This document shows, one piece after another, positions 562 to 63,437 of a stretch of DNA of 64,000 bases. This DNA is from Escherichia phage TH12. The translations under genes and the position numbers were made by a program. The number at the start of each line of letters is the position of its first letter. Position 1 is the stretch's first letter. The stretch lies in sequence record MT446390.1; one strand, written 5' to 3'. Under the pieces are notes generated by a model that saw only the letters and a list, made by a program, of their open reading frames with translations, was not told the origin of the DNA and searched no databases.

Positions 562-591
562 GTTTACAAACACCAAGGATGGTGTTACTAT
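562..591 (+). promoter_or_regulatory. T4-type early promoter (GTTTAC -35, 18 nt spacer, TACTAT -10)
   Basis: GTTTAC at 562-567, TACTAT at 586-591, followed by TATCA and RBS AGGAG before the ATG at 622. Confidence 0.6.
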
Positions 592-621
592 GGGTTTTAT
601 CAACAACACGAGGAGAAAATT

Positions 622-1122
622 ATGAATATGCAATTGATTACTAACGATATGGTTGTGGCAGCATTTGGTGATTCTACAGATGGAATCCGGGTCTTTAAGA
701 AAGGCCGTCCAGTTGGTTATCTTACGGACCTTCGTACTACTCTAGCGAAAAATGCTAAAAAGAAGTTAAAGCAAAAGGAATATTCCACCCGATACGCTGA
801 AGAGAAACGTGAAGCAATGCCGGAAGCAGTTAATGCTATGGTAGAATTTCTTCAAAACAATTTGACTAAATATGACGCTAATGTGTTCATTAATATTAGT
901 CAACCAAACGTACATATCGCAGGTATAAAATTCTACATTATTTGCGACCCTCTTACCGACAAATTCAACCGTCTCGGAATCTCAAGTCCATATCATACAG
1001 CAGAAGAGTTGTGTGTATTGTTTGAATCGTACAAAATCCAGTGTGATGGTTTGAAAACCGTTCTTATCAATGGATTATCCCGAGATGAAATCATTGAGAT
1101 TATTAAAACATGCTTAAAGTAA
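622..1122 (+). CDS. alc: Alc-like host transcription inhibitor (166 aa)
   Basis: ATG at 622 preceded by AGGAG; the listed ORF start at 559 overlaps the promoter; size and position between rnlA and the spanin/pseT genes match T4 alc; sequence identity not verified. Confidence 0.65.
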   Translation: MNMQLITNDMVVAAFGDSTDGIRVFKKGRPVGYLTDLRTTLAKNAKKKLKQKEYSTRYAEEKREAMPEAVNAMVEFLQNNLTKYDANVFINISQPNVHIAGIKFYIICDPLTDKFNRLGISSPYHTAEELCVLFESYKIQCDGLKTVLINGLSRDEIIEIIKTCLK

Positions 1123-1466
1123 ATCCGATTTACGCTATAGTAGCAGCTTTTGCTCTAGTTTCTACGGTAACAATAGTTGTCTTAAACAACAAAGTTGATT
1201 CGTTGAATACTGAATTAGCTTCTGTTAAAGAGGCTGCTAAAAACAATGCTAAAGTATTAGACGACTTCAAAGTTCAATATCAGTCAATCGAAGAAATGAC
1301 TTATAAGAACCGTGTTTTAGTTGACCAACTTAAGGCCGAAAATGAAAAGCTCCGTAAGGATTCGAAGAAGAAGAACGTGGTGGCAAGTAAACCAGGATTG
1401 GTCGAAAAACAAATCAACAGGTCCTTCGATTCCTTTGCAGAAGACCTCAGGAAGCTCTCAGAATGA
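1110..1466 (+). CDS. i-spanin (Rz-like; T4 pseT.3 equivalent)
   Basis: N-terminal hydrophobic helix IYAIVAAFALVSTVTIVVL followed by charged coiled-coil-like region; stop overlaps next gene start (ATGA). Confidence 0.7.
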   Translation: MLKVNPIYAIVAAFALVSTVTIVVLNNKVDSLNTELASVKEAAKNNAKVLDDFKVQYQSIEEMTYKNRVLVDQLKAENEKLRKDSKKKNVVASKPGLVEKQINRSFDSFAEDLRKLSE

Positions 1467-1753
1467 TTAAATTAATCGCAGTTGTATTATCTATTGGCAT
1501 TTTGGCTGGATGTGCCCAGGATGTGCCCTTAAGCCCTAAAGAAACTTTACATCCGCCATGGCCTGAATCTATTGTTGAATATAACCAGAAATGGCAAGTA
1601 AAGGTTATTGATGGTAATCCGTGGGTTGGAATGCCATTTGAAGACTCTCAAGAATTTCGTATCTGGTTAAACGACGTAAAAAGATATGTACATGACCAGA
1701 AGACTATGATATGTTATTATCGTAGTGGTTTAAAAGAGGAAAAATGCCAATGA
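1463..1753 (+). CDS. o-spanin lipoprotein (Rz1-like; T4 pseT.2 equivalent)
   Basis: Signal peptide with lipobox LAGC (MIKLIAVVLSIGILAGC) directly after the i-spanin. Confidence 0.7.
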   Translation: MIKLIAVVLSIGILAGCAQDVPLSPKETLHPPWPESIVEYNQKWQVKVIDGNPWVGMPFEDSQEFRIWLNDVKRYVHDQKTMICYYRSGLKEEKCQ

Positions 1754-1968
1754 CTAAAGAACAGCATGAATACATTAAAGGGCTTATCTATGAATCTGAA
1801 ATGGCGGCTATGATTTATGGGCGCCAGATTCAACGATTAGAATCTTTGCCTCCGACTAATGACCGATTGTTAGTTCAGTCTCGTGCTAATCTGAAAAATG
1901 AATATCAGAATAAGTGGGCAGTAGCGACTAAAGCTCTTCATGAGTATATCGAATCTTTAGTAAAATAG
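1744..1968 (+). CDS. hypothetical protein (74 aa)
   Basis: Compact ORF in syntenic early operon, phage-like codon usage. Confidence 0.5.
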   Translation: MPMTKEQHEYIKGLIYESEMAAMIYGRQIQRLESLPPTNDRLLVQSRANLKNEYQNKWAVATKALHEYIESLVK

Positions 1969-1998
1969 TTTACAAACTCTCGGGAGCAGAGTATAATG
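1968..1998 (+). promoter_or_regulatory. T4-type early promoter
   Basis: GTTTAC 1968-1973, TATAAT 1993-1998; dyad GGAGCA/TGCTCC flanks the -10. Confidence 0.55.
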
Positions 1999-2025
1999 CT
2001 CCTATGGATAATTGAGGAAATCTAA

Positions 2026-2325
2026 ATGAAAACATTACTAGAGAATTACATCAAACGGTCTGATGAGTATATTGATATCTGTCGTGGAATGTCACTTGGC
2101 AATTATGACAAAGATGCAGCAAAGGCACTAGATGAAGCAGGTAAAGCTCTTCGTAAAGCTGCTAAAGAAAAAGGGTTGGATTTGCAACAACTCAAAAGTC
2201 ATATGATTAAATTTATTTCTTCAAACGTTAGAAGTACGTCAATTAATAAAAACGTTGCTGAAATTAATAAAGACCGGCGCGAGCATAACATTCGTATTCT
2301 TGAAATTTTCTTAGGAATAAAATAA
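2026..2325 (+). CDS. hypothetical protein (99 aa)
   Basis: ATG with GAGGAAA RBS downstream of early promoter. Confidence 0.55.
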   Translation: MKTLLENYIKRSDEYIDICRGMSLGNYDKDAAKALDEAGKALRKAAKEKGLDLQQLKSHMIKFISSNVRSTSINKNVAEINKDRREHNIRILEIFLGIK

Positions 2326-2516
2326 TGGACCAAGCCAAAATCGATAAGTTAATCCATACGCTTGTAGCAGATATCAATACACGGGCTCTTCGTAAATCAC
2401 AGAATGGCGATTCTTGGACTATGCAAGATTGCAAGAAAGGTGCTGAACTAGGACGTGAAATTGCTAAAATTCTTGGTGGACAATTTGAATTTGCTGAAGA
2501 GGTAGTAAAACTGTGA
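2325..2516 (+). CDS. hypothetical protein (63 aa)
   Basis: Start overlaps previous stop (TAATG). Confidence 0.5.
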
Positions 2517-3412
2517 AAAAGATTATTTTGACTGTAGGTTGTCCTGGGTCTGGTAAAAGCACTTGGGCTCGTGAATTTATTGCTAAGAATCCTGGGTTCT
2601 TTAATATCAACCGCGACGATTATCGTCAATCCATCATGGGCCACGAAGAACGCGACGAGTACAAATACACAAAGAAGAAAGAAAGTATCGTAACTTATAT
2701 GCAACACGACGCGGCACATATGATTCTCTGTCAAGATGGAACTAAGGGTGTTATTATTTCTGACACCAACTTAAATCCTGAACGTCGTCTTGTCTGGGAA
2801 GAATACGCTAAGCAGTGGGGCCATGAAATTGTATATCAAGTGTTCGATGTTCCATGGACCGAATTGGTTAAACGTAATGCCAAGCGCGGCACAAAGGCCG
2901 TTCCTATTGATGTTCTACGTTCGATGTATTCTCGTATGCGTGAATACAAAGGACTTCCGGTTTATAAAGGAACTCCGGGTAAACCTAAAGCGGTTATCTT
3001 CGACCTTGACGGGACTTTAGCTCTACATGTTGCTCGTGGGCCTTATGAGTTAGATAAACTATCCACAGATGCCCCGAACCCTATGGTTGTCGAATATGTT
3101 AAGATGCTTCATCAGGCTGGGTATACAATTATTACTGTAAGCGGTCGTGAATCTGGAACTAAAGAAGATTCAATGTGTTATTACGAAGCAACTAAAAAAT
3201 GGATGGACACGTTTTCTATTCCATGGGAAATGCATATTCAACGTAATCAAGGTGACACTCGTAAGGACGATGTTGTTAAGGAAGAACTCTTTTGGAACTG
3301 TATTGCTCCTTATTATGATGTGAAATTGGCCGTTGATGACCGTAACCAGGTTGTGGAAATGTGGCGACGTATTGGTTTAGAATGTTGGCAAGTCGCATTC
3401 GGTGATTTTTAA
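2513..3412 (+). CDS. pseT: polynucleotide 5'-kinase/3'-phosphatase
   Basis: P-loop [12 protein letters not shown] phosphatase motif FDLDGTL, near full-length resemblance to T4 Pnk; GTG start. Confidence 0.95.
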
Positions 3413-62660: not shown

Positions 62661-62672
62661 TTTTACAAAACA

Positions 62673-62702
62673 GTTTACATAAGGATGATGGCGTGTTACT
62701 AT
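62673..62702 (+). promoter_or_regulatory. T4-type early promoter
   Basis: GTTTAC 62673-62678, TACTAT 62697-62702; dyad AGGATGAT/ATCATCCT flanks the -10. Confidence 0.6.
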
Positions 62703-62736
62703 CATCCTATCAAATAAACGACCTCAAGGAAATAAA

Positions 62737-63024
62737 ATGAAAACCTATAAAGAATTTATATCACCTGATGCTAACGTTTCTACTCTGACTGAAGCAACCC
62801 TTACTTCCGAAGTTATTAAAGCAAATAAAGGACGTGAGGGCAAACCAATGATTAGTCTGGTTGACGGCGAAGAAGTAAAAGGTACTGTTTACTTAGGGGA
62901 TGGATGGTCTGCTAAGAAAGATGGCGCTACTATTGTTATCTCTCCGGCTGAAGAGACTGCACTGTTTAAAGCTAAGCATATTTCTGTAGCTCAGCTTAAA
63001 ATTATTGCAAAAACCCTTCTGTAA
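62737..63024 (+). CDS. hypothetical protein (95 aa, MKTYKEFI family)
   Basis: Promoter-leader-ORF cassette; shares exact 29-nt start region with next cassette. Confidence 0.6.
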   Translation: MKTYKEFISPDANVSTLTEATLTSEVIKANKGREGKPMISLVDGEEVKGTVYLGDGWSAKKDGATIVISPAEETALFKAKHISVAQLKIIAKTLL

Positions 63025-63027
63025 GTA

Positions 63028-63057
63028 GTTTACATGCTAATAGGACTATGTTATAGT
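63028..63057 (+). promoter_or_regulatory. T4-type early promoter
   Basis: GTTTAC 63028-63033, TATAGT 63052-63057; dyad TAGGACTA/TAGTCCTA flanks the -10. Confidence 0.55.
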
Positions 63058-63087
63058 AGTCCTATCAAAATTAATTAGGAAAATAAA

Positions 63088-63396
63088 ATGAAAACCTATA
63101 AAGAATTTATCAATGAAGCGGCTGCACCAAAGACATTTGTTATTAATACTCAAGCGAGTCTTGATGATGAGTACGCGGATGCAATTCTGAGGTCACTTGC
63201 TAAGAACGGTGTTGAAGTATCTGCATCAGACTTTAAGAAAGGGTCTTCCGAGATGTTTATTTCTATAACTAAAGGATCTAAAGCTAAGATTAAATCATCA
63301 TTCGGAGTTGCTCGCACCGATCAAATCGACAGTCATGACTTTAAACAAACTGGTGTTAAACGGCAGAATACGATTGCATCACGCGGAATAAAATAG
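63088..63396 (+). CDS. hypothetical protein (102 aa, MKTYKEFI family)
   Basis: Promoter-leader-ORF cassette. Confidence 0.6.
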   Translation: MKTYKEFINEAAAPKTFVINTQASLDDEYADAILRSLAKNGVEVSASDFKKGSSEMFISITKGSKAKIKSSFGVARTDQIDSHDFKQTGVKRQNTIASRGIK

Positions 63397-63407
63397 TTTA
63401 TAAAACC

Positions 63408-63437
63408 GTTTACTTTTAGATAGGGTGGTGATACTAT
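63408..63437 (+). promoter_or_regulatory. T4-type early promoter
   Basis: GTTTAC 63408-63413, TACTAT 63432-63437; dyad TAGGGT/ACCCTA flanks the -10. Confidence 0.55.

Follow-up and report, generated by a model that had tools for sequence, protein, structure and literature searches.

Cassettes in which an early promoter is combined with a stem-loop have been described previously as PeSLs (promoter-early stem-loops; Arbiol et al. 2010, PMC2839356; Comeau et al. 2014, PMC4122927). Their promoters are of the sigma70 type with an AT-rich upstream region and lie between an upstream stop codon and a downstream Shine-Dalgarno sequence (SD) and ATG; the stem-loop is most commonly found between -35 and -10 or overlapping the -10 (PMC2839356). 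Here we analysed inverted repeats that enclose the -10 element of early promoters in a 64,000-nucleotide stretch of Escherichia phage TH12 (sequence record MT446390.1), called the window in the following. This combination of promoter and stem-loop is a rediscovery of the PeSL. The PeSL papers do not specifically cover RB69-like (Mosigvirus) genomes and contain no covariation statistics, no strand-asymmetry test and no analysis of terminator exclusivity; what we can add is the statistical backing, a sense-strand signature of the pairing and a mutual exclusivity with canonical terminators. These additions sharpen the hypothesis that the stems are terminator substitutes in read-through RNA.

Two roles have been proposed for PeSLs, namely termination or attenuation of upstream transcription and service as a recombination linker for modular shuffling, and lacZ read-through was lowered by one stem-loop from RB49/phi1 to the same degree as by rrnB T1 (PMC2839356). 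For T4 and PST, promoters of the form TTTACW-N17-TAYWAT and stems of the form AGnA-loop-TCnT were reported, with high variability in the group (PMC4122927). The window shares with the PeSLs the promoter form, the intergenic slot, the position of the stem and the clustering at variable genes, including the internal-protein (IP) loci, and at homology breakpoints. Its stems are richer in AT and have no U-tract; the PeSL stem that was tested as a terminator is a polyG/polyC stem from RB49/phi1. Conserved early-promoter blocks of ~70 bp flank the IP genes of T-even phages (Repoila et al. 1994, as cited in PMC2839356); as far as that citation describes them, they are at the same locus as window positions 62673-63446, with weaker, AT-rich stem-loops of variable size beside swappable IP genes. 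This locus holds three of the seven dyad sites claimed in a preliminary description of the window.

Intercistronic hairpins also include the C(UUCG)G hairpins of T4 and the 3' stabilisers of the repetitive extragenic palindromic (REP) type of E. coli. Like the stems in the window, these terminators and stabilisers come directly after a stop codon in polycistronic RNA; unlike terminators, the window stems have no U-tract, and their loops of 4-13 nt contain the -10 box. In phage N4, the early promoter of the virion RNA polymerase is a DNA hairpin with a stem of 5-7 bp and a 3-nt loop. The N4 promoters likewise have an integral inverted repeat, but there the DNA hairpin itself is recognised by a phage RNA polymerase, whereas in the window the host sigma70 holoenzyme reads an ordinary -35/-10 and the evidence favours pairing at the RNA level. 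In the T4 genes e, soc, 49 and I-TevI the promoter is located in the 5' strand of a hairpin, and RNAs initiated upstream fold while local ones do not (PMC3014915). Those promoters are late or middle ones and the SD/AUG is sequestered, whereas the stems bracketing the -10 in the window leave the SD free.

Complementarity across the -10 element

A 4-kb probe from the window showed 98.8% identity to Shigella phage Shf125875, and hundreds of other T-even phages matched as well. The Shf125875 record is assigned to Mosigvirus, the RB69-like group, and judged by its sequence the window is Mosigvirus, too, that is, from an RB69-like T-even phage. The T4 minus strand from 135,556 to 73,278 is collinear with the whole window (65-94% identity). 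Gene content comprises alc, pseT, cd, gene 31, rIII, the 30.x genes, gene 30 and alt, in addition baseplate and head genes and the IP locus adjoining gene 57B.

The promoter pattern GTTTAC-N16-20-TAnnnT matched 16 times in the window compared to 5.1 expected matches, 13 of them on the + strand. Eleven + strand sites (562, 1968, 4094, 7547, 7990, 9076, 14902, 30247, 62673, 63028 and 63408) are located between a stop codon and an SD/ATG and look like real gene-proximal early promoters, which agrees with the eleven T4-type early promoters of the preliminary description (11-12 intergenic sites in our count). Site 27395 is without a nearby SD/ATG, and site 15714, a chance match within a gene, was rejected. 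Spacers between GTTTAC and TAnnnT have 17-19 nucleotides, most sites carry TGn plus TACTAT or TATAAT, and SD and ATG follow 25-45 nt past the -10. At 1968 (upstream open reading frame (ORF) 1744-1968, stop codon overlapping the -35), 4094, 7990, 9076 and 14902, the -35 is overlapped or directly adjoined by a stop codon. The RefSeq T4 record is without promoter features, and T4 promoters were called by the pattern plus a downstream SD/ATG.

The preliminary description had taken the inverted repeats, which preserve pairing but not sequence, as selection on secondary structure and not as a protein operator. All 14 arm strings it had quoted are present, displaced by 0-2 nt at most. As a control, each spacer was combined with the post -10 segments of all other promoters. 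In the window, the spacer/post -10 duplex energy was -9.8 kcal/mol for native and -5.6 kcal/mol for chimeric pairs, and for the 36 T4 promoters -7.25 versus -3.9 kcal/mol (permutation p=5e-5 in both cases). A larger T-even set was obtained by promoter-pattern scans of IMG/VR DNA, in which many matches were not T4-like and were removed by a similarity filter; the 120 loci that resembled T4 or the window in nucleotide sequence yielded 151 non-redundant promoters. Searching viral contigs with a single protein found close relatives only, the DNA-pattern scans more diverse ones. Energies of -8 kcal/mol or lower were reached by 30% of the 151 promoters compared to 7% of cross pairings (p=5e-5).

The complementarity thus does not merely follow from the AT-rich consensus. 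The consensus (spacer AGG, discriminator CCT and GUG-AUAC-UAU) does give a background, visible in the 7% of cross pairings, but native pairings are far above it. A dimeric protein with a palindromic operator, for instance an early-promoter shut-off factor, would be in line with the fact that the shut-off of early promoters is incompletely understood (PMC3014915); however, the stem sequences vary from site to site with the pairing kept. Operator and chance complementarity are therefore, even taken together, hardly credible. The dyad around the -10 is real and under selection, and it is a trait of about one in three T-even early promoters and of half of those in the window, not of all.

Covariation at fixed positions pointed in the same direction. 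When 133 unselected promoters with 18-nt spacers were aligned without gaps, the nine-pair helix in the commonest register was 48.0% paired compared to 43.7+-1.1% in column-preserving shuffles, with a covariation score of 0.238 compared to 0.181+-0.012; neither observed value was reached by any of 500 shuffles, and slid registers were 35-42% paired. Hand-computed fixed-column covariation gave only modest z-scores (top 3.5) because the stems occupy several registers, and the register-free native-versus-chimera comparison and structure-pair counts are more informative. A generic repeat search of the window yielded a mass of overlapping AT-rich palindromes; a dedicated, unbiased hairpin scan (perfect arms of at least 8 bp, loops of 4-20) was used instead and found 38 perfect hairpins compared to 19 in shuffles. 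Promoters occupy <1% of the window, yet four of the 38 enclose a promoter -10.

Homologous cassettes show how pairing is kept while sequence changes. They were used instead of gene orthologues; strict orthology via the cd.2 protein failed, several relatives having a different upstream neighbour and no promoter. At the cd.3/cd.2 junction the stem is GGTGGAGTT/AACTCTACC in the window, GGTAGAGTT/AGCTCTACC in T4, GGTAGGACT/AGTCCTACC in three IMG/VR phages and, as a further form, AGGGTTAT/ATAACCCT. The window promoter 1968 differs from the near-identical T4 motB promoter (T4 7215) by GGGAGC...GCTCC to GGGACC...GGTCC, a clean G-C to C-G swap. These differing stems bear out the reading of pairing rather than sequence as the conserved property, as do the within- versus cross-promoter tests. 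The unit TAGGACT-TATAGT-AGTCCTA is found in the IP locus in the window and at the cd junction elsewhere, and part of the stem variation is probably exchange of whole units rather than stepwise mutation. We also observed that window 63408 and T4 73572 (locus L002) share the 3' arm UACCCUAUC while their 5' arms differ in position, that of T4 (ATAGGGTTTTAGC) being 6 nt more upstream than that of the window (TTTTAGATAGGGT); comparison of 63419-63446 with T4 73572 looks as if spacer segments had been permuted with the pairing kept.

Such shifted arms, and the perfection of many stems, would also be expected if the inverted repeats were a functionless by-product of template-switch correction of quasi-palindromes, a mutation class reportedly described in T4 in classical work by Ripley and co-workers. 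This neutral explanation is very unlikely: it leaves unexplained the centring of the repeats on the -10, their dependence on a stop codon abutting upstream, their avoidance of promoters with an upstream terminator and the fact that their imperfections are G:T rather than A:C.

Sense-strand pairing and the context of the stems

If two arms are merely complementary, G:T and A:C mismatches are equally expected. Among single mismatches flanked by Watson-Crick pairs, we found 19 G:T or T:G but one A:C or C:A. Part of the G:T pairs stems from the consensus (GUG-AUAC-UAU in the extended -10). With the pairs of the -10 hexamer left out, the counts were 15 and 2 (p=0.002), or about 13 and 2 in truth since one family is counted twice. 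The excess is a sign of pairing on the sense strand only, as RNA or as sense-strand single-stranded DNA, and most simply as RNA; it argues against a cruciform or a palindrome in double-stranded DNA.

The preliminary description had left open whether the hairpin acts at the DNA level or in read-through RNA. This mismatch asymmetry, together with the link to upstream stop codons and the exclusivity with terminators reported below, favours RNA over DNA. A DNA hairpin or cruciform that promotes cassette recombination or modulates promoter melting is in our view unlikely. In its favour, nine of 12 window promoters are within 0-75 nt of a break in T4 homology (break/promoter pairs 1961/1968, 7990/7990, 63024/63028, 63428/63408 and 30254/30247 among others), a proximity obtained from promoters alone. 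Occurrence of the unit TAGGACT-TATAGT-AGTCCTA at different loci in different phages fits as well, and mini-circles arise via exchange between PeSLs, for which a stem-binding recombination protein was considered by the authors (PMC2839356). However, a G:T pair on one strand is an A:C mismatch on the complementary strand, which is bad for a cruciform, and loops of 7-13 nt make extrusion costly. About 50-70 bp of conserved promoter sequence suffice for exchange, T4 recombination requiring <50 bp of homology (PMC2839356), and mutual exclusivity with upstream terminators is not predicted by a DNA element.

The location of the stem relative to the start site is informative, too. In the non-redundant promoters, base 7 after the hexamer is A in 73%, flanked by T at positions 6 and 8 in 68% and 66%, and positions 3-9 contain almost no G; C at -3 to -1 was reported for RB69 by Nolan et al. 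(PMC1524935). The TATCAA that the preliminary description had noted is, with the start predicted at this A, the start-site consensus (-1 to +5) and not part of the hairpin motif. It is rarer than had been claimed, being exact in only five of 12 promoters (YATCAA in six), and begins 6-7 nt past the last base of the hexamer and not 8-12 nt after the -10. Since the 3' arms of hairpins bracketing the -10 end at about -1 to +5, RNA started locally is without the hairpin, and only read-through RNA contains the stem-loop. Leaders of locally initiated transcripts fold at 0.0 kcal/mol.

Presence of the dyad, counted at -8 kcal/mol or lower, depends on what is located upstream. It was found in 40 of 95 promoters with a co-directional ORF stop within 45 nt upstream of the -35 and in four of the 55 others (Fisher p=2.4e-6). 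Where a terminator consisting of a hairpin plus T-run is located within 110 nt upstream, one of 36 promoters has a dyad, compared to 44 of 115 without such a terminator (p=1.4e-5). In the complete sets of T4 and the window taken together, the dyad was found in 0/9 promoters with such a terminator and in 17/38 without one, and both 7547, which follows a UUCG terminator, and 30247, which has no upstream co-directional gene, are without a dyad. These p-values are optimistic since the promoter sets include paralogous families, for example T4 'ACAACTATCAAC' promoters with upstream terminators, so that the Fisher tests overstate independence. The structure is thus specific for the sense strand and dependent on its context. 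That dyads and canonical terminators exclude each other at this position suggests an equivalent role.

Our preferred reading is that the junctions are composite cassettes of the PeSL type in which the stem-loop is a 3'-boundary element of the upstream cistron, and we give this a probability of roughly 60%. Each junction would consist of stop codon, -35 GTTTAC, a spacer of 17-18 nt, TGn/-10, start site, A-rich leader, SD and ATG. RNA polymerase would read the -35, extended -10, -10 and start region (consensus CCT-A-TCAA, A being the predicted +1), and the remaining free spacer positions would have evolved complementarity to the discriminator/start region. Local transcripts would be without the hairpin and have an unstructured leader, while read-through transcripts from the upstream gene would fold into a stem-loop with the -10 box as its loop. 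This stem-loop would substitute for an upstream hairpin-plus-U-tract terminator where a short junction leaves no room for one, and would thereby act on the transcript of the upstream gene. Because a U-tract is missing, efficient termination is not expected; attenuation or pausing, and/or a block of 3' exonucleases once the unstructured A-rich leader has been cleaved, appear likelier. That the stem-loop acts in RNA, and in which way, is an inference.

The hallmarks of PeSLs described above are largely found in the window. Its promoters are strong sigma70-like ones of the TTTACW-N17-TAYWAT form, six hairpins enclose the -10, two others, at 562 and 14902, are spacer-internal and correspond to the subclass between -35 and -10, and the order is stop codon, cassette, SD and start. 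A preference for hyperplastic regions with variable ORFs and indels is seen as well: besides the breaks in T4 homology near nine of 12 promoters, counted at promoters alone, the IP genes are replaced relative to T4, and T4 has no counterpart of the 1968-2516 cassette. The T-even stem form AGnA/TCnT is present at 62673 and 63028 (AGGA/TCCT) and at 63408 (AGGG/CCCT) and absent at 4094, 7990 and 1968.

Besides the paralogous families, several further observations weigh against our reading. The dyad is limited to about 30-45% of promoters and is missing from some compact junctions of the window (9076, 562). The sequences past the 3' arm are 52% A, one of 45 is T-rich and there is no U-tract, thus the hairpins are not terminator-like; a GC-rich stem with a short loop and a direct U-tract, as in intrinsic terminators, was not found among the promoter hairpins, none of which was called in the terminator scan. 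The G:T excess could be inflated by a C-to-T bias on the non-template strand. The sole terminator assay was done with a GC-rich (polyG/polyC) stem of RB49/phi1 and not with a T-even-type stem (PMC2839356), and the legend for PST places the stems 'just upstream of the promoter' (PMC4122927), which misfits the geometry in the window. A model in which the hairpin protects the upstream RNA after RegB cleavage at GGAG was rejected, as there was no association with GGAG SDs.

It might also be possible, although we consider it tentative, that the stem-loop is a distinct RNA element at the cistron boundary and not a terminator, formed in read-through RNA only and both defining and protecting the 3' end of the upstream message. 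The 3' end would then be protected after endonucleolytic cleavage in the A-rich leader, or together with a hypothetical partner factor. The hairpin may also have a role in processing or stability, as had been proposed for it before.

A second class of promoter-spanning stems was observed at 7547-7616 and 30247-30303 of the window and at T4 62797, 53943, 166807 and 65413. Here, the 5' partner is the -35 or the first part of the spacer (anti-SD CCUC/CUCC, or GUUUAC) and the 3' partner is the downstream SD region (native versus cross pairings, p=3.5e-4, 146 promoters). At 7547-7616, the promoter contributes UCUCC from its 5' part (7553-7557), and its partner is the SD GGAGA further downstream (7607-7611); the read-through RNA folds at -10.2 kcal/mol, the promoter's own transcript at 0.0. 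The SD is sequestered at 7547 and in part at 30247. According to these folds, read-through RNA of this class would hide the SD while the own transcript would be unstructured, following the logic of T4 e/soc/49/I-TevI at early promoters. It is nevertheless quite unlikely that translational insulation, in which hairpins ensure that only locally started transcripts properly express the downstream gene, accounts for the dyads. Its mechanism is established for the four T4 genes (PMC3014915) and the anti-SD pairing of the second class fits it, but the stems bracketing the -10 end 12-25 nt upstream of the SD, which is unpaired in the predicted read-through folds of all six.

Individual sites and neighbouring features

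Hairpin energies and z-scores of the window promoters were determined with RNAfold and shuffle controls (Table 1). Of the seven dyads claimed in the preliminary description, five are strong (4094, 7990, 62673, 63028 and 63408) and 1968 is moderate, while 14902 did not hold. Its 5-bp dyad does not form in the minimum-energy fold and does not outperform shuffled sequences (z +0.96); the better fold is a small spacer-internal hairpin, ACACA-UGGA-UGUGU (14910-14923). The hairpin at 7990 has perfect arms of 11 bp, and T4 homology begins precisely at position 7990. RNA folding gave no dyad around the -10 at 562, 7547 and 30247, and at 9076 no hairpin significant against shuffles. An Rfam scan of the whole window gave no family match.

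Table 1. Early promoters of the window and structures predicted at them (all on the + strand; energies in kcal/mol)
Positions	Context	-35	-10	Predicted +1	Structure	Energy	z
562..591	upstream of alc				spacer-internal hairpin 569-575/580-586 (ACACCA-AGGA-UGGUGU)	-8.0	
1968..2004		1968-1973	TATAAT 1992-1997	A2004	moderate hairpin enclosing -10, 1982-1988/1997-2003 (GGAGCAG.../...UGCUCC)	-12.2	-1.7
4094..4133	upstream of cd.2 homologue	4094-4099	4118-4123	A4130	strong 13-bp hairpin 4104-4116/4121-4133, tetraloop AUAC	-16.9	-4.0
7491..7616	early promoter 7547-7575 after terminator				canonical UUCG-tetraloop terminator 7491-7510 plus T-run		
7990..8036	upstream of gp30.7 homologue	7990-7995	TATTAT 8013-8018		strong hairpin 7997-8011/8016-8031 plus outer pairs 7990-7994/8032-8036	-20.9	-5.0
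9076..9106	19-nt spacer		TATAAT			-6.3	-0.1
14902..14936	downstream of alt				claimed dyad GGATG/CATCC 14916-14920/14932-14936, not supported		
30247..30303	no co-directional upstream gene				-35 GUUUAC pairs with GUAAAC just past SD		
62673..62709	IP locus	62673-62678	62697-62702	A62709	strong hairpin 62682-62691/62699-62708 (AGGAUGAUGG/CUAUCAUCCU)	-14.6	-3.9
63028..63065	IP locus	63028-63033	TATAGT 63052-63057	A63064	strong hairpin 63040-63049/63056-63065	-12.9	-3.1
63408..63446	IP locus	63408-63413	63432-63437	A63444	strong 12-bp hairpin 63419-63430/63435-63446	-16.0	-2.4

Spacer-internal hairpins were observed in the window (569-586 and 14910-14923) and at T4 promoters 2458 and 50973, with forms such as ACACCA-AGGA-UGGUGU and CCACA-AGGA-UGUGG, and the TG of the extended -10 forms part of their 3' arm. 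As a general class they are marginal (p=0.06). A further dyad, UGUGUGA/UCACACA, surrounds the -10 of a GTTGAC-N17-TACCAT site at 29410-29455 (-10.4 kcal/mol, z -2.2). This site is antisense within gene 24, its T4 counterpart is less palindromic, and the dyad may be fortuitous.

Hairpins of the form GGGAGAC-UUCG/CGAA-GUCUCCC recur in the window at 7491-7510, 15261-15283, 30586-30605 and 49942-49961. The first two, each followed by a T-run, look like true terminators. A perfect 15-bp hairpin is located at 28890-28923 between the convergent genes rnlB and gene 24.

Some gene-level differences were found next to the promoters. At 1961-2516, a promoter and two small ORFs (2026-2325 and 2325-2516) are inserted between the pseT.1 and pseT homologues compared to T4. 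In the annotation of the closest relative, the alc ORF (559-1122 in the window) has 187 aa, starts at the rnlA stop and would thus include promoter 562-591. An SD and ATG at 616 would give an Alc of 168 aa, close to the 167 aa of T4 Alc, and the annotated start is probably too far upstream. The 330-aa ORF at 4509-5501 occupies the position of T4 cd.1 and corresponds to a Shf125875 gene annotated as phospho-2-dehydro-3-deoxyheptonate aldolase (DAHP synthase, AroG-like); it looks like a host-derived metabolic gene in a variable region.

Meaning for early gene cassettes

If the role proposed here is right, the sequence from the -35 to the start site of these promoters, which are very strong, is doubly used, as DNA for the RNA polymerase and as an RNA boundary signal for the preceding gene. 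This would explain the autonomous, exchangeable cassettes that are packed into the 55-65 nt junctions of T4-type phages, and could be a template for the design of compact synthetic operons. Should the stem-loops be boundary elements distinct from terminators, every early gene would form an expression cassette that is insulated and can be swapped. In combination with the stems that pair with the SD, this would amount to a general code of promoter-spanning RNA structures separating read-through from locally initiated mRNAs.

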